Source: Candidatus Bathyarchaeia archaeon (GTDB lineage: Archaea; Thermoproteota; Bathyarchaeia; 40CM-2-53-6). From it: a stretch of DNA of 64,000 nt. This document shows, one piece after another, positions 12,560-18,027 of this stretch. A program made the translations under genes and the position numbers. The stretch is taken from contig JBEKFP010000003.1 in the NCBI GenBank assembly GCA_050013255.1, positions 64,001 through 128,000 on the forward strand. Reading direction: 5' to 3'. The notes under the pieces were generated by a model that saw nothing but the letters and a program-made list of their open reading frames with translations, was not told where the DNA came from and ran no database searches. Every line of letters begins with the position of its first letter. The stretch's first letter is position 1.

Positions 12560-12907
12560 TTACTTTGGTTTGAATGAGTGGCCGCAACCACACGTCTCGA
12601 TTGCATTCGGGTTGTTTACCCTGAAGCCTTCACCCATGACTGATTCAACATAGTCGACTTCAGATCCATCCACGTATTGCGCGCTTTGTTCGTCAACTAG
12701 AAGTTTTACTCCGTGAGCTTCAATGACATTGTCTCCGTCGGTCTGGTTGTCGAAGGCCAAACCGTACTGGAAGCCGCTGCAGCCACCGCCCGAAACATAA
12801 AGGCGCAGCCCGACGTTCTCTTTACCTTGCTTCTCTATCGCCGCTTTGACTTTCTCAGCAGCCTTCTCAGTCAACGAAATCTTCAAGGTGCTTGGGGAGT
12901 GTAGCAT
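12560..12907 (-). CDS. A-type Fe-S cluster carrier (ErpA/IscA/HesB family)
   Basis: GGCSGFQY, NPNA..TCGCGHSF. Confidence 0.93.
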   Translation of the reverse strand: MLHSPSTLKISLTEKAAEKVKAAIEKQGKENVGLRLYVSGGGCSGFQYGLAFDNQTDGDNVIEAHGVKLLVDEQSAQYVDGSEVDYVESVMGEGFRVNNPNAIETCGCGHSFKPK

Positions 12908-13039
12908 TCTAATGCACTAGGTTGCGGGTATTACGTATGGATTATTTAAGTTTAGGTCAATGAAAAACAAGACCCAAACGCATAACAAACGCCCCGCCTC
13001 CAAAGTGGGTGTTAAGCGCTTTTCGGGAGGTTTTCTTCA

Positions 13040-14176
13040 TTGACGCAGACGCTCGGCATCGTTTACAGCGACGCCTTCCAGCAGTACAATTTTGGGCCGA
13101 CCCATCCACTGAAACCTACTAGGCTGAAGTTGACCTTCGAGCTAATGAGATCAGCCAAATTACTTGCTTCGCCAAACGTGATGGTTTGCGAACCACGTGA
13201 GGCGACCTCTAATGAACTTACGCTCTTCCATGATGAAGAATATGTCAACCTAATCCATGAAGCTAGCAAGTCGGGGGAAGGGTTTCTCGATTTAGGAGAC
13301 ACTCCCGTGTTCAAAGGTTGCTACGAGGCATCAGCACTCGCGGTAGGCGCATCTCTGAAGGCGGTTGATATGGTAATGTCCGGTCAGGTAACTCATGCGA
13401 TGAACATTTCCGGTGGGCTACACCATGCTCATCCAAGCCGAGCCTCAGGTTTCTGCATCTTTAACGATCCTGCTATCTCAATCGCTTACCTGAAGAAAAA
13501 ATACTCCCTGGAGAAGATCCTCTACTTGGACGTGGATGCGCATCATGGAGATGGAGTAATGTATGGATTCTATTCAGACGCTGGTGTCTTGGACATAGAC
13601 TTCCACGAAGATGGCCACCATCTTTTTCCTGGTACTGGCTTCACGGACGAAATAGGGGAAGGTAATGCCTCCGGACTTAAGATCAATATACCCTTATCCC
13701 CCTTAACGGGCGACGAGCCGTACATGGAGTTGTTCCGGGAGATTGTTCCCGCCGCGGTAAGGAGGTATAAGCCGCAAATTCTGCTACTCCAATGTGGAGC
13801 GGATGCGCACGCAAACGACCTTCTTGCTCACTTGCAGCTCACCACCAAGGCGTACGGAGATGTCGCGAAAATCGTTCATGAATTAGCTCATGAGGTTGCT
13901 GGCGGCCGCCTCGTAGTTTTTGGCGGCGGCGGATACAACGTAGCCAATGTTGTGAGAACGTGGACGTTCGTTGCTTCTGCTCTGATTCAGTACGCGCCTC
14001 CGAGAGAGATCCCAAAGGTTTGGCAGAAGATGTTTGAAGCTCTGGTCGGGGAAAAGGCTCCGGAATGTATCAGCAGTGAGGGAGAGGCGAAGCACGTACT
14101 TTCGTCCGACGTAATCCAGAAGCAACAAGCCGAGATCCTAAAGGACCTGAAACGAAGAATACCATGTCTATCGTAG
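13040..14176 (+). CDS. Histone deacetylase family / acetoin utilisation protein AcuC
   Basis: HPLKP.R, GGLHHA, GFCIFND, DVDAHHGDG, FPGTG, GADAH, GGGGY. Confidence 0.92.
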   Translation: MTQTLGIVYSDAFQQYNFGPTHPLKPTRLKLTFELMRSAKLLASPNVMVCEPREATSNELTLFHDEEYVNLIHEASKSGEGFLDLGDTPVFKGCYEASALAVGASLKAVDMVMSGQVTHAMNISGGLHHAHPSRASGFCIFNDPAISIAYLKKKYSLEKILYLDVDAHHGDGVMYGFYSDAGVLDIDFHEDGHHLFPGTGFTDEIGEGNASGLKINIPLSPLTGDEPYMELFREIVPAAVRRYKPQILLLQCGADAHANDLLAHLQLTTKAYGDVAKIVHELAHEVAGGRLVVFGGGGYNVANVVRTWTFVASALIQYAPPREIPKVWQKMFEALVGEKAPECISSEGEAKHVLSSDVIQKQQAEILKDLKRRIPCLS

Positions 14177-14197: not shown

Positions 14198-15076
14198 TCA
14201 GGCATTCTCTGGCATTGATTCCTGCGGCTTCAGGACTCCTGTGAGGAGGTCTTTTTGAACTCGCAGATAATCCTCGGGTGTCCCAACGTCCGCCCAGTAG
14301 CCCTCATGTTTGTACCCGAAGATTGTGCCTTCCCGCATGAGCTTGGGAAACACATCCAACTCGAGCGAGGTTCGCCTTCCCTTTGGGATCTTCGCGAAGA
14401 CGGATGGGCGAATTACGTAGACGCCAGCATTTACCCAAACTTCACCAGCTGGTTGTTTTCGCGGTTTCTCAACGAAGCTTACAACTCTGTTATCATTATC
14501 GAGTTCTACGGCGCCGAACCTTGTTGGTGTCTTCGTCTTCGCTAAGACAACTGTGGCGAGCGAGTTGGACTTCTTATGCGCGTATATTAATTTGTCAAGG
14601 TCGAGTCCTGAAAAAATCACGTCGCCATTGAGGGCTAGGAAATCGGAGCTTAGCATCTGCTCAGCATTCTTGATAGCGCCTCCCGTGTCCAGTGGTTCCT
14701 TCTCGAAGCTGAAACGCAATCGTACCCCAAGCCGGTGCTCGTCCAAGTATCGCACAATTTGTTCCTGAAGGTAACCTACTGCCAATACGATCCTGTCAAA
14801 TTCGTATCGTTTCAGGTACTCAATTTGGTACTCAATCAACGCTTGGTATCCTATCGGCAGAAGAGCTTTGGGTGTTGAGAAGGAAGTCGGCCTGACCCGG
14901 GTTTCAAGCCCGCCGCACAGGATTAATGCTGTCCTTTCCGGGCGAAATTGTTCCATTCCAAGTTTCAAAAGGAATTCTGCTGTCTGGGATCGGTTGGTAA
15001 AGCGTGTACCGTCCACGAGTAAGTCCACTTTATGCATGAGCGATGGGTCTATGGTCATACTGAAACGGCGTTTCAT
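14198..15076 (-). CDS. Ribbon-helix-helix + sugar-phosphate nucleotidyltransferase-like fusion, putative transcription regulator
   Basis: N-terminal KRRFSMTIDPSLMHKVDLLVDG..FTNRSQTAEFLL (CopG/NikR-like), followed by an NTP_transferase domain with altered signature CGGLETRVRP...PK, NGD, YWADVGTPEDY. Confidence 0.8.
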   Translation of the reverse strand: MKRRFSMTIDPSLMHKVDLLVDGTRFTNRSQTAEFLLKLGMEQFRPERTALILCGGLETRVRPTSFSTPKALLPIGYQALIEYQIEYLKRYEFDRIVLAVGYLQEQIVRYLDEHRLGVRLRFSFEKEPLDTGGAIKNAEQMLSSDFLALNGDVIFSGLDLDKLIYAHKKSNSLATVVLAKTKTPTRFGAVELDNDNRVVSFVEKPRKQPAGEVWVNAGVYVIRPSVFAKIPKGRRTSLELDVFPKLMREGTIFGYKHEGYWADVGTPEDYLRVQKDLLTGVLKPQESMPENA

Positions 15077-15086
15077 GGCTAGCTTA

Positions 15087-15116
15087 GTAATACATCATAG
15101 CCTTTAATTGTATTAC
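15087..15116. promoter_or_regulatory. Bidirectional promoter with GTAATAC-N16-GTATTAC operator
   Basis: TTTAAT TATA-like box (15103-15108) flanked by GTAATAC (15087-93) and GTATTAC (15110-16). Confidence 0.6.
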
Positions 15117-15143
15117 GGTTGATTCTTGTTCGGTGTATTCTCA

Positions 15144-15257
15144 TTGGATACATGCCCGGCTTGCGGAAGCAGGGACTTGGAATTCCTCATGTCTCACGAG
15201 CAAGCAGCTCAGATCAAATGCACGAACTGCGTAAACATTTGGTGGGGCCAAAGCTAG
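15144..15257 (+). CDS. 37-aa zinc-ribbon microprotein (CPACG...CxxC-xNIWW)
   Basis: TTG start: MDTCPACGSRDLEFLMSHEQAAQIKCTNCVNIWWGQS*; paralogue at 15470. Confidence 0.7.
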   Translation: MDTCPACGSRDLEFLMSHEQAAQIKCTNCVNIWWGQS

Positions 15258-15409
15258 TCCAGAGAACAATCCGCAGCAAACTTAGCGTGCACTCTTGCCA
15301 CGAAGAATACTGGGGAAACTGCTCAATAGCAGAGAGTAACATTTTCACAGTCCTGCGGATAGGTGATACGCCGAAGGTCATACGGCGACGACTAATATTC
15401 AGTAGAGAA

Positions 15410-15439
15410 GTATTACCAGAAAGCCTTTAATTGTATTAC
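15410..15439. promoter_or_regulatory. Second copy of the promoter/operator, GTATTAC-N16-GTATTAC
   Basis: AGCCTTTAATTGTATTAC at 15422-15439 is identical to 15099-15116; additional GTATTAC at 15410-16. Confidence 0.6.
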
Positions 15440-15469
15440 ATTATTGTATAAAGGCTGGCGGTCATCTAC

Positions 15470-15622
15470 ATGATGCGTGTTTGTCCGGCCTGTGGGAGTC
15501 GGCGAATAGGATTGAGGCAGAGAAACACTTCGGAAGTACGAATTGAATATTTGCCTGCGTTTGAGGAGTTCACCCAAGTTGTATGCGCTAGCTGCCACAA
15601 CCTGTGGTGGGATCGCAGCTAA
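15470..15622 (+). CDS. 50-aa zinc-ribbon microprotein (CPACG...CxxC-xNLWW)
   Basis: MMRVCPACGSRRIGLRQRNTSEVRIEYLPAFEEFTQVVCASCHNLWWDRS*. Confidence 0.72.
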   Translation: MMRVCPACGSRRIGLRQRNTSEVRIEYLPAFEEFTQVVCASCHNLWWDRS

Positions 15623-15666
15623 GCTGGGGACGCGTGAGAGCCCACATCGCTGTGGGATATGAAGTC

Positions 15667-18027
15667 TTAACTCTTCTTTTCTGCGCATTGCTTTCTTGCA
15701 GCGTCTAGAACGACTCTCTGTTCGACTTGGGCAACCATCCTTCGTGTGTGGACTATGACATCTGGGTTCACTGAGATGCTATCTATGCCGGATTCAACAA
15801 GAAACTTCGCGAATTCAGGATAGACGCTTGGCGCTTGGCCGCAGATGCTTACGGTTTTGCCGTAGCTGTGGGCTGTCTCGATAAGTTCCTTGATTGCCCG
15901 TTTGACAGCGAGGTTTCTTTCGTCAAACAATGGCGCCAAAACTTCATTGTCCCTGTCGGCCCCGAGTATCAGCATTGTTAGGTCATTGCTGCCAATTGAG
16001 AAACCGTCCGCACCAGCTTTGCAGAATTCATCCGCCAATATTATGTTGCTGGGAATTTCTGCCATAATCCAGAGTTTGAAATCCTCTGACTGCACCAAGC
16101 CTTCCTGTCGGAGGAGCTCACGGATTTTCACGAATTCGTCTACCGTGCGGTTGAAGGGGATCATGCACCAAAGGTTTCTCATACCCATCTCGTTTCTGAC
16201 TTTCTTGACCGCAGCAATCTCAAGCTTGAATGCGGGCTGGAACCGCGGGTCAGTGTACCGGCTCGCACCTCTCCAACCGATCAGCGGGTTCGCTTCTTTG
16301 ATGGCACCCTCATATTTTTCTCCACCTTCGAGTTTAGCGTATTCGTTCGTTTTGAAGTCACTGAAGCGCAAAACGACCGTTCTCGGATAGAATGCTCTAC
16401 AGATCGTTTCAAGTCCTGCTGACAACTTGTCAACGAATTCTTCAGGGTGCTTTTGCTCAATGAGCATCATGGGATGTTTCTTGACGTGGTCGCTTACGAT
16501 GAATTCCATCCGCAGTAGGCCCACGCCGTCGACCGGTAACTGCGAGATTCTGTTGGCTAACTCTGGTTCACCAAGGTTGACGAAGATCTTTGTCCCGGTA
16601 ACAGTAGGGTCCTTGAAAGCCGCCAATCCATCTGCTGCTGGTTGAGGTCTCGTGTCGAGCTCGGGGGTTTCTAGCACTATTCCCTTGTACACGATACCCA
16701 TCTTTGCGTCAACTGTAACCTCTTCCCCGGTCTGTATTGTGTGAGTTCCAACTTTGGTTCCCGTTATGCACGGTATTCCTAATTCGCGACTTACAATGGC
16801 GGCATGGCATGTCATACCGCCGGCATCGGTGACGATTGCCCTTGACTTCTTCATTGTCGGCACCCAGTCGGGTGTAGTCATTTCGGTGACGAGGACTTCG
16901 CCGTTCTGAAACTCGCTTACGCGATCTGCCGTTAGGATAACGTGTGCCTTACCCGCTCCGACGCCAGGCGATGATGGCAGCCCTTTAAGGATAATTTTCT
17001 TCTCCGCCGCAACGAGAGGCGTGGGTTTCTTAATTGGACTTTTCTTGAGTGACCAAACTGTTTCGGGTCTTGCTTGTAGTATTAGTAGTTTCCCGGTCTG
17101 TGAGTCAACGCCCCATTCAATGTCCATTGCGTGCCCGTAGTGTTGTTCAATAGTCAACGCATATTTGGCCAGTTCAATTACTTCTTCATCTGTGATTACT
17201 TGCCGGTCCTTGAGATCGTCTGGAACCTTCTTCTCCTCTGTTCCCCCGGTCTTATTTCTCACAAGCATGATCGTCTTCGTGGGTATTTCCTTTCGGATGA
17301 TTTTCATGCTCCCCTTATCTACGTAGTAGTCATCGGGAGTGACAGTCCCCTTCACGACGTACTCTCCTAACCCATAAGATGCCTCAACCAGGATTAAGGA
17401 TTCATCGCCATTTGTTGGATCCATGGTGAACATAACGCCGCTGGATTCGGAGTAGCACATCATTTGCACTATTGCAGAAAGTGCGACGTCTTCGTGGTTG
17501 AAGCCTTTCTCAACTCGGTAGAAGATCGCGCGGTCTGTGAACAGACTCGCATAGCATTCCTTTACGCTCTCAATCACATTGCCTACTCCAGTAACGTTAA
17601 GGTAGCTTTCCTGTTGACCTGCGAAGCTGGCGTCGGGTAGGTCTTCAGCAGTTGCAGAGCTTCTAATGGCGACGAACGGGTTCTTGACTTTCTCTCGTTC
17701 GGCGAGTTTCTCATAGCCCTCGGCTATGACTCGTTCAAGTTCCTTCGGCATCGCCGCGGAACCAATCATCCCCCTGATTTCAGCACCAACCTTCTGGAGT
17801 GTGATCGTGTCGTTTGGGTCCAGCAAGGCCTTCAGGGCAGTAGCGATCTTGGATTCCAGCCCATTCCTTGCGAGGAACAACCTGAACGCGTCAGCAGTCA
17901 GGGCGAAGCCATAAGGTACCGGAACCTTCGTCTTGGAGGTCATTTCGCCCAGGCTTGCTGATTTTCCGCCAACGAGTGGCACATCTTGCTTACTGATTTG
18001 TTCGAACCAAAGTAGAAGGGGACCCAT
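15667..18027 (-). CDS. ppsA: Phosphoenolpyruvate synthase (pyruvate, water dikinase)
   Basis: VGGK.ASLGE, RSSATAEDLPDASFAGQQ, QARPETV, TCHAAIVSRELGIP, SIGSNDLT. Confidence 0.95.
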   Translation of the reverse strand: MGPLLLWFEQISKQDVPLVGGKSASLGEMTSKTKVPVPYGFALTADAFRLFLARNGLESKIATALKALLDPNDTITLQKVGAEIRGMIGSAAMPKELERVIAEGYEKLAEREKVKNPFVAIRSSATAEDLPDASFAGQQESYLNVTGVGNVIESVKECYASLFTDRAIFYRVEKGFNHEDVALSAIVQMMCYSESSGVMFTMDPTNGDESLILVEASYGLGEYVVKGTVTPDDYYVDKGSMKIIRKEIPTKTIMLVRNKTGGTEEKKVPDDLKDRQVITDEEVIELAKYALTIEQHYGHAMDIEWGVDSQTGKLLILQARPETVWSLKKSPIKKPTPLVAAEKKIILKGLPSSPGVGAGKAHVILTADRVSEFQNGEVLVTEMTTPDWVPTMKKSRAIVTDAGGMTCHAAIVSRELGIPCITGTKVGTHTIQTGEEVTVDAKMGIVYKGIVLETPELDTRPQPAADGLAAFKDPTVTGTKIFVNLGEPELANRISQLPVDGVGLLRMEFIVSDHVKKHPMMLIEQKHPEEFVDKLSAGLETICRAFYPRTVVLRFSDFKTNEYAKLEGGEKYEGAIKEANPLIGWRGASRYTDPRFQPAFKLEIAAVKKVRNEMGMRNLWCMIPFNRTVDEFVKIRELLRQEGLVQSEDFKLWIMAEIPSNIILADEFCKAGADGFSIGSNDLTMLILGADRDNEVLAPLFDERNLAVKRAIKELIETAHSYGKTVSICGQAPSVYPEFAKFLVESGIDSISVNPDVIVHTRRMVAQVEQRVVLDAARKQCAEKKS

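Follow-up and report, generated by a model that had tools for sequence, protein, structure and literature searches.

What is a sugar-1-phosphate nucleotidyltransferase (NTase) doing behind what looks like a DNA-binding domain, and beside a duplicated palindromic motif, in an uncultured archaeon? The question is raised by a locus in 64,000 nucleotides of a Candidatus Bathyarchaeia archaeon (contig JBEKFP010000003.1, positions 64,001 to 128,000; this whole stretch is hereafter called the window, and positions are given in its coordinates), which belongs to a genome of 2.46 Mb in three contigs. Bathyarchaeia are an abundant uncultured group of soils, peat and sediments. To our knowledge, signal, site and regulon have been established for few archaeal transcription factors, and none of these for Bathyarchaeia. 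A sequence-only reading of the window had proposed that a 292-aa gene on the minus strand fuses a ribbon-helix-helix (RHH) domain to an NTase domain and controls, through two copies of an operator, two zinc-ribbon microproteins encoded divergently from it. We followed up this proposal in 105 genomes of the order, 37 with the fusion and 68 without it; the genomes are related, so the per-genome counts reported below are not independent. The genus was represented by 23 genomes, that of the window included, with 20 distinct fusion loci, and the close relatives are deposited Bathyarchaeia metagenome-assembled genomes from soil and peat. The proposal was supported overall, and the comparison added an autoregulatory site, the palindromic nature of the heptamers, a glutamate specific to the genus and gluconeogenic targets. 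We consider it probable that the fusion protein acts as a one-component transcription factor derived from an enzyme, which would clamp the TATA box, repress its own gene together with a small regulon linked to gluconeogenesis, and use the NTase domain as its ligand sensor.

An RHH-like N-terminus joined to a sugar nucleotidyltransferase fold

The fusion gene (14198-15076, minus strand) is a monocistronic open reading frame (ORF) whose product divides into two parts. Residues 1-42 (14951-15076) have the layout of an RHH domain, namely a strand of alternating polar and hydrophobic residues (K-R-R-F-S-M-T-L-D, with KRRFSMT as its core), two helices at about residues 11-20 and 29-38, and a turn of the G-x-x-x-NRS type. 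In a set of 22 orthologues G23 and N28-R29-S30 do not vary; across four families R4, T8, G23 and the NRS motif are invariant, and there the first 48 residues equal the enzyme domain in conservation. The Pfam model RHH_1 stayed under its cut-off (13 bits against 20.5), and the assignment therefore needed other evidence. When a profile built from the 22 orthologues was searched against 177,635 PDB sequences, the RHH domains of NikR came first and second (P. horikoshii 2bj1, E 0.022; E. coli 1q5v, E 0.04), both aligned in register from residue 3 or 4 of the two proteins, followed by an unrelated chain (4axg) and then by the RHH domains of HicB3 and ArtA. R4, S6 and T8 of the fusion's strand align with R3, T5 and T7 of E. 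coli NikR, which we take to be its base-contacting strand positions. The same register was obtained by hhalign against the NikR-like protein of the window's own genome (E 6.7e-4); this 127-aa RHH protein is encoded on contig C1 (L079:1492-1875), directly after the gene of an ABC-type metal permease. An AlphaFold2 model contained helices at 11-20 and 29-38, with a confidence score (pLDDT) below 55 in the N-terminal part, and left the strand unformed, as expected in a monomer because this strand pairs only in the dimer. Taken together, these matches make it likely that the N-terminus is an RHH domain, as the sequence-only reading had it.

Two broader searches added little. With residues 1-48 as query, phmmer returned two fragments of the protein's own family and no outside relatives among 1.84 billion cluster representatives, which says nothing either way with so short a query in so huge a database; the Protein Atlas held nothing for the RHH part. 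About 35 of 120 deposited orthologue gene calls begin at Met7 or later (MTLDPS...) and so drop the DNA-reading beta strand. This is probably the reason why the RHH domain lacks an annotation, and it is worth stressing for annotation that about a third of the database calls have lost this strand.

The second part, residues 50-278 (14243-14929), is an NTP_transferase domain (Pfam PF00483, E 1.4e-41, 143 bits against a cut-off of 21.2). Its best PDB relative is GMPPB (7d72, E 4e-38), with which the PK, LNGDV, EKP, NAGVY and WADVG motifs of the fusion all align, and the top structural matches by Foldseek were VTC1, GMPPB and HddC at E of about 1e-20 (GDP-mannose pyrophosphorylase, 7e-21); by sequence and predicted fold the domain thus appears closest to the GDP-mannose pyrophosphorylases. 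The substrate- and metal-binding positions K70, D152, E203-K204-P205 and D263 are invariant in 24 orthologues. The C-terminal left-handed beta-helix is absent from the domain, and the orthologue alignment contains no conserved His/Cys cluster in it. Database entries name the protein 'NDP-sugar pyrophosphorylase' or 'mannose-1-phosphate guanylyltransferase'. A type II toxin-antitoxin system, made of an RHH antitoxin and a Pol-beta NTase of the MNT/AbiE kind, was rejected: the fold is of the sugar-phosphate GlmU/RmlA type, and in place of a two-gene module there is one fused gene, which is conserved by vertical descent and present in a single copy.

The signature loop of the NTase domain is altered, as had been read before from the window. 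At residues 55-63 (14888-14914) the protein has GGLETRVRP where the canonical loop is GGxGTRxRP, so that the signature G-x-G-T-R-x-x-P becomes G-L-E-T-R-V-R-P. The glutamate was found in 20/20 loci of the genus and in all 120 database homologues of more than 80% identity (GG[LFM]E[TSPA]R), with a variable residue (T, S, P or A) behind it; orthologues in other families have GGLGTRLRP, except for one family with GGLG[IV]K. The Gly-to-Glu change is confined to this genus and, as other families keep the canonical loop, the ancestral fusion must have possessed it. We read the change, together with the freedom of the next residue, as suggesting a shift from a bifunctional enzyme-regulator towards a pure sensor, and the orthologues would then make up a natural series that starts with an enzyme-regulator of canonical loop and ends with a probable pseudoenzyme sensor. 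Four further NTase genes in the genome could cover the housekeeping and biosynthetic needs.

The same data bear on a different possibility, that the fusion protein binds the operator yet stays an active enzyme, a 'trigger enzyme' like PutA in which substrate supply switches between catalysis and DNA binding. Orthologues beyond the genus keep GGLGTRLRP, the sugar- and metal-binding positions are all conserved also within the genus, and PutA, an autogenous repressor, sets a precedent for joining RHH and enzyme domains (PMC5293562). On the other side, the replacement of a near-universal third glycine in 120/120 homologues, next to a position that may be T, S, P, A or R, looks like relaxed catalytic constraint, and GMPPA is a case of the same fold turned into a non-catalytic NDP-sugar sensor (PMC11228364). 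We regard a trigger enzyme as possible and lean against it for the protein of the window.

A proposed paired palindromic operator around the TATA box

Two copies of a 30-bp element lie to the right of the fusion gene. Operator 1 (15087-15116) consists of GTAATAC (15087-15093), nine nucleotides, the TATA-like TTTAAT (15103-15108), one T and GTATTAC (15110-15116); operator 2 (15410-15439) consists of GTATTAC, the BRE-like stretch CAGAAAGCC (BRE, TFB-recognition element), TTTAAT (15426-15431), one T and GTATTAC. The 18-mer AGCCTTTAATTGTATTAC, noticed earlier in front of each microprotein, is exact at 15099 and 15422, with 0.02 occurrences expected even if up to 3 mismatches are allowed. Both copies also bear out the described bracketing of TTTAAT by GTAWTAC-N16-GTATTAC: each heptamer GTA-W-TAC is itself palindromic, and the heptamer centres are 23 bp apart. 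The whole genome contains 124 GTAWTAC heptamers; only two pairs fall within 60 bp of each other, both with a spacing of 16 and both at this locus, which likewise holds the only two copies of the 30-bp pattern. A genome scan with one mismatch gave no further operators, apart from an unconvincing match on contig C1 at 257297.

The half-site 15087-15093 does lie between the TATA-like box and the ATG of the fusion gene (15074-15076), and operator 1 would therefore serve both the fusion gene and microprotein 1 as a divergent promoter. From the centre of the TATA box there are 29.5 nt to the ATG of the fusion gene and 38.5 nt to the TTG of microprotein 1; judged by the first distance the fusion mRNA is probably leaderless, and its proximal heptamer would then cover about -10 to -17.

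Conservation of the element next to orthologues, which had been set beforehand as a test, was found throughout the genus. All 20 loci have CAT-N8-10-GTAWTAC-N9-yTTAAyT-GTATTAC upstream of the fusion gene, in which the heptamers and the TATA box never vary, save for a single half-site base in L013, and the 9-nt spacer is free; they keep it with or without an adjacent microprotein gene; the operator would thus be first of all the fusion's own, autoregulatory site. Operator 2 is near-invariant in three aligned genomes and a fourth (one spacer base is G or T), in flanking 150-bp intergenic DNA that has diverged in the aligned three with large indels. Outside the genus a degenerate operator was found in three of the other families examined; RTAWTAC-N16-TATTAC lies 2-9 nt from the ATG of orthologues of 55-60% identity in two other families.

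The operator follows the fusion through the order

The N-terminal segment joined to the NTase domain is present in 37/105 genomes, always single-copy: in 20/23 genomes of the genus, in 0/36 of four sister genera of the same family, and in 12/16, 2/2 and 3/3 genomes of other families. The orthologous frames measure 285-337 aa, with one exception in family f2 (G099, L114:2026-3441), where the fusion lacks the first 8 or so residues and continues in frame with an upstream zincin-like ORF (HEVGHMLGLTHPF); this frame of 471 aa or longer may be a real gene fusion, decay or an assembly artefact. In family f8 the fusion occupies the third place in a gap-pgk operon.

The exact N16 pattern occurs in 26/105 genomes, 25 of which carry the fusion, and 67 of the 68 fusion-less genomes are without it; as a control, the reversed pattern matched in 2 genomes. 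A variant with N15 was found in 11 genomes, 8 of them fusion-bearing; among the others one is incomplete and belongs to a fusion-bearing genus, and two have no TATA-like spacer and are probably chance matches. Counted by genus, patterns of either spacing with a TATA-like spacer are present in 7/9 fusion-bearing and 0/16 fusion-less genera.

This distribution is difficult to reconcile with the account that makes the protein a plain sugar-1-phosphate NTase with an inert N-terminus, and the GTAWTAC pair either a core-promoter element peculiar to certain genes or a binding site for some unrelated factor. Such an account draws on the sub-threshold Pfam match of the RHH segment, on the enzyme names under which the protein is filed, and on family f2, where the distal heptamer overlaps the likely TATA box. 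An idle extension would hardly be conserved like the enzyme domain over four families or match the NikR RHH in register, and a promoter element would not be expected to be missing from nearly all fusion-less genomes, among them sister genera with the same promoter machinery; moreover, a palindromic heptamer flanking both sides of the TATA box corresponds to no known basal element. We hold this account to be very improbable.

A proposed clamp on the TATA box

The preferred reading, a repressor that senses a ligand through its NTase domain, can be put as follows. N-terminal RHH domains would pair into dimers, each reading one GTAWTAC, whose palindromic sequence suits a two-fold symmetric RHH dimer. 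The NTase domains would join two such dimers, as the metal-binding core of NikR does, and one oligomer, a tetramer like that of NikR, would span the two heptamers and enclose BRE and TATA box. Sugar NTases are commonly dimers or tetramers. Bound on either side of the TATA box, the oligomer should keep TBP/TFB and RNA polymerase out or trap them. In the window's genome the targets would be the fusion's own promoter and the promoters of the two microproteins. For the rightward genes one heptamer lies between TATA box and start site, and leftward the proximal heptamer would fall at about -10 to -17; given these positions, repression by exclusion is the most economical reading. The ligand of the NTase domain may be a nucleotide, a sugar-1-phosphate or an NDP-sugar, so that the domain would read the far end of gluconeogenesis; we infer this ligand control from the conservation of the binding residues, from the precedent of GMPPA (PMC11228364) and from the regulon described below.

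Several points weigh against this reading. The statistics of the RHH assignment are marginal (Pfam E 0.11, PDB profile E 0.02-0.04, hhalign probability 27%). The orthologues of family f8 have no recognisable operator, and one genome (G070, 88% complete) has an operator yet no detectable fusion. The typical TATA-to-start distance of the genome is longer than the 29.5 nt of the fusion gene. The orthologues with the canonical loop could be plain enzymes with an autoregulatory tail. Finally, the source organism is uncultured, and these predictions come from genomes alone.

Targets in relatives and the link to gluconeogenesis

Away from the fusion gene every target shows the same order of elements: a heptamer, a purine-rich BRE-like stretch (such as AGAAAGCC or AGAAAAGG), a TATA box of 6 bp, 0-1 nt, the second heptamer, 25-45 nt and the start codon. 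In the window's own genus the operator also precedes small Cys-rich proteins of three further kinds; among the Cys-rich targets are two peptides, one of about 37 residues with 11 Cys and the other with 10 Cys, and a DnaJ-like protein (CxxCxGxG). The 11-Cys peptide (TCFVCG...CVCCPEDGHVCC...CPVCGP), found in G002, G003 and G009 (L089-L091) about 30-60 nt from the operator, has a metallothionein-like composition and a TTG start, and gave no Pfam match.

In 5 genomes of the genus the operator precedes a 353-aa gene (L092:1559-2620; relatives L115-L139) of a GAPDH-like family that is a remote relative of archaeal type II GAPDH and keeps the catalytic Cys of VSCNT; it has no Pfam match and reaches the NCBIfam model PRK04207 at E 2e-25, far below the cut-off. 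This gene, absent from the window's own genome, is present in 24/105 genomes of the order. It carries the operator in 5/5 cases in the genus and in several fusion-bearing genera of family f2. In the f2 genera g22, g24 and g25 the operator is followed by a zinc-ribbon microprotein of 35-38 aa (CPHC...DYYLHI.LC..C) and then by the GAPDH-like gene; in g20 it lies upstream of the GAPDH-like gene, with no recognisable zinc-ribbon ORF, and a second, separate operator precedes a stand-alone microprotein of the f2 family; in G099 there is a second operator-microprotein module, an echo of the twin arrangement of the window. In the fusion-less genus g15, 6/10 genomes carry the GAPDH-like gene, and at the five full-length loci examined it has neither operator nor microprotein; a GAPDH-like gene that lacks the operator where the fusion is absent speaks once more against an inert N-terminus with an unrelated promoter element. 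In genus g2 the operator lies between the genes of triosephosphate isomerase and fructose-bisphosphate (FBP) aldolase/phosphatase (Pfam TIM and FBPase_3), and in family f6 it is flanked by a CPGCG zinc-ribbon gene and a small uncharacterised one.

The GAPDH-like, TIM and FBP aldolase/phosphatase targets tie the regulon to gluconeogenesis. With ppsA and ppdK as neighbours of the fusion locus in the window, the common thread is the triose-to-hexose half of this pathway, and an earlier remark on the ppsA/ppdK neighbourhood has thereby gained substance. The regulon might also be read in terms of metal or thiol chemistry rather than sugar, with a NikR-like factor set over Cys-rich, zinc-binding or metallothionein-like peptides, given that most of the second targets are Cys-rich and that both the DNA-binding domain and the operator geometry are NikR-like. 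This is hard to square with a C-terminal part that is an NTase fold instead of the NikR metal-binding domain and has no conserved His/Cys cluster, and with GAPDH-like, TIM and FBP aldolase/phosphatase genes among the targets; we judge a metal or thiol regulon to be quite unlikely.

The zinc-ribbon microproteins

The two paralogous ORFs that had been noticed divergent from the fusion gene were recovered on the plus strand as microprotein 1 (15144-15257, 37 aa, TTG start, CPACG...CTNC...WW) and microprotein 2 (15470-15622, 50 aa, with a 12-residue insert relative to the first). They align at 37% identity and share CPACGSR...CxxCxN[IL]WW; C5, C8, C39, C42 and the WW pair are invariant in 10 sequences. 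Microprotein 1 has orthologues in 3 relatives and starts with ATG at the same codon in one that is 96% identical, and GGTG stands 9-12 nt upstream of its start; in general the start is ATG, TTG or GTG depending on the genome, always at the same codon and usually behind a GGTG-type stretch resembling a Shine-Dalgarno (SD) sequence. The TATA-to-start distances of 38.5 and 41.5 nt fit the genome-wide peaks (TATA at -48 to -40, SD at -12), which supports the two ORFs as genes. The ratio of nonsynonymous to synonymous polymorphism (pN/pS) was 0.07-0.16 for the 50-aa form, 0.17-0.43 for the 37-aa form (four genomes) and 0.22-0.64 for single-copy forms, and indels are in frame (a single one in the 37-aa form). 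Both ORFs are under purifying selection and, by these features, the microproteins are to be regarded as real genes.

The AlphaFold2 model of microprotein 2 is a three-stranded zinc ribbon (pLDDT 74), in which two predicted Cys knuckles (CPxCG...CxxC) sit on a three-stranded sheet; the top Foldseek matches were the ribbons of TFIIS, Rpb9 and C11 at a non-significant E of about 0.1, and every microprotein score against the Pfam ribbon families was below cut-off. A homologue search with microprotein 2 against 5.8 billion proteins returned zero candidates, because these ORFs are not called as genes, and the Protein Atlas offered unnamed small clusters only. A tblastn and regular-expression scan of the genome found no further paralogues. 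The expectation that the microproteins would be conserved beside the fusion was borne out in part: they are intact in 11/23 genomes of the genus (10 beside the fusion) and under selection, 3 more genomes have decayed remains next to the fusion, and the family was found in this genus only. Other families have a different zinc-ribbon microprotein downstream of the same module of operator and promoter; hhalign of the genus family against that of f2 matched the CPxC knuckle only (probability 8%), which does not support homology. In G070, a genome of this genus whose orphan operator lies at a contig end, a CPACG...WW microprotein (L107:1480-1608) stands beside ppsA, and a SixA-like phosphatase gene takes the place of fusion gene and operator.

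Would the microproteins be more than passive targets? Either the factor could activate, or they could be its co-regulators, as anti-repressor or co-repressor. Archaeal activators bind just 5' of the BRE-like stretch, which is where the upstream heptamer lies; the second heptamer, by contrast, lies between TATA box and start site. This is the classical repressor position in archaea. As for co-regulation, the f2 microprotein leads the regulated operon, G099 has two copies as the window has, and small zinc-finger proteins such as Brz can regulate transcription (PMC2253796); against it, nine loci of the genus keep the operator without an intact adjacent microprotein. We think activation or co-regulation unlikely, and favour the microprotein genes as targets of a repressor.

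Comparison with known systems

A full-text literature search found no description of an RHH-sugar NTase fusion, in line with the previous statement that no characterised system of this kind was known. The closest precedent for DNA recognition is NikR, which in E. coli binds the operator GTATGA-N16-TCATAC as a tetramer whose two ends each carry an RHH dimer (PMC7055735). The fusion resembles it in its best N-terminal match, in two short sites separated by N16 and in the C-terminal place of the regulatory domain. It differs in that the C-terminus is a sugar-1-phosphate NTase and not an ACT-like nickel-binding tetramerisation domain, with no metal site evident, and in that its half-sites are each palindromic and bracket an archaeal TATA box; as its C-terminal 240 residues are an NTP_transferase domain, the protein is not a NikR, though it may work like one. 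PutA carries an N-terminal RHH domain on a metabolic enzyme and autogenously represses a divergent promoter region (PMC5293562). The fusion of RHH to an enzyme and the proposed autorepression are shared with it, whereas enzyme fold and pathway are other, and PutA is bacterial, with a redox- and membrane-driven switch and different operator sites. The fusion belongs to neither family; it would be a regulator of the one-component or trigger-enzyme type and a third enzyme-type partner of the RHH domain, after PutA and NikR.

GMPPA and GMPPB are the closest solved relatives of the C-terminal domain in fold and sequence, and GMPPA serves, without catalysis, as an NDP-sugar sensor (PMC11228364). Unlike the fusion, these eukaryotic proteins act by protein-protein allostery, have no DNA-binding domain and possess the C-terminal beta-helix. 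The microproteins resemble the archaeal C(P)XCG micro-proteins (Haloferax HVO_0758 and HVO_2753, Halobacterium Brz), some of which are regulatory (PMC11241148, PMC10716476, PMC2253796): they have fewer than 70 aa and two Cys knuckles, the first CPxCG, are often unannotated, and their weak Pfam matches point to the same ribbon families. They differ from them in that no sequence match was significant and that this genus alone has the C-terminal N[ILV]WW.

As to function, the analogues lie elsewhere among archaea. Tgr/TrmBL1 and TrmB of Thermococcales are one-component, sugar-sensing regulators of glycolysis and gluconeogenesis that bind near BRE/TATA of FBPase- and GAPDH-type genes. Sugar availability is likewise tied to such genes in our proposal; those regulators have, on the other hand, a winged-helix DNA-binding domain, another sugar-binding fold and the TGM motif, and belong to a different phylum.

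A bolder version of the preferred reading can be entertained, tentatively and with less confidence than would be needed to adopt it. The fusion would then represent an unrecognised class of feedback regulator in Bathyarchaeia, a NikR-like tetramer whose pyrophosphorylase domain senses an NDP-sugar or hexose-1-phosphate and which clamps the TATA boxes of its own gene and of the GAPDH-like, TIM, FBP aldolase/phosphatase and microprotein genes; the microproteins would be partners or adaptors of the regulated enzymes, and in this genus the protein would have become a pure sensor. Comparative genomics has in any case yielded a testable set, made of a candidate factor, a 30-bp operator of defined geometry, a small regulon and candidate ligands, and it links unannotated zinc-ribbon microproteins to a defined regulatory circuit. 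For a prediction, operator and regulon are unusually well defined.

Neighbouring features

The locus sits between an HDAC-like gene (13040-14176, plus strand; Pfam Hist_deacetyl), convergent with the fusion gene, and ppsA (15667-18027, minus strand), after which comes ppdK; an IscA-like gene (12560-12907, minus strand) adjoins the HDAC-like gene. A lone GTATTAC at 12928-12934, between the IscA-like and HDAC-like genes, is probably due to chance, as its partner heptamer is missing. The stretch of about 150 bp between microprotein 1 and operator 2 (15258-15409) is free of ORFs and shows large indels among close relatives; should the TATA box of operator 2 fire leftward too, the transcript would be antisense to microprotein 1. 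An Rfam scan of 14900-15750 gave zero matches and, as this spacer is also poorly conserved, there is no sign of a structured RNA in it. Between the stops of microprotein 2 and the convergent ppsA, a hairpin (CCCACA-TCGC-TGTGGG, 15641-15656) is mostly kept in the two closest relatives, less so in G018, and may be a shared 3' end element.

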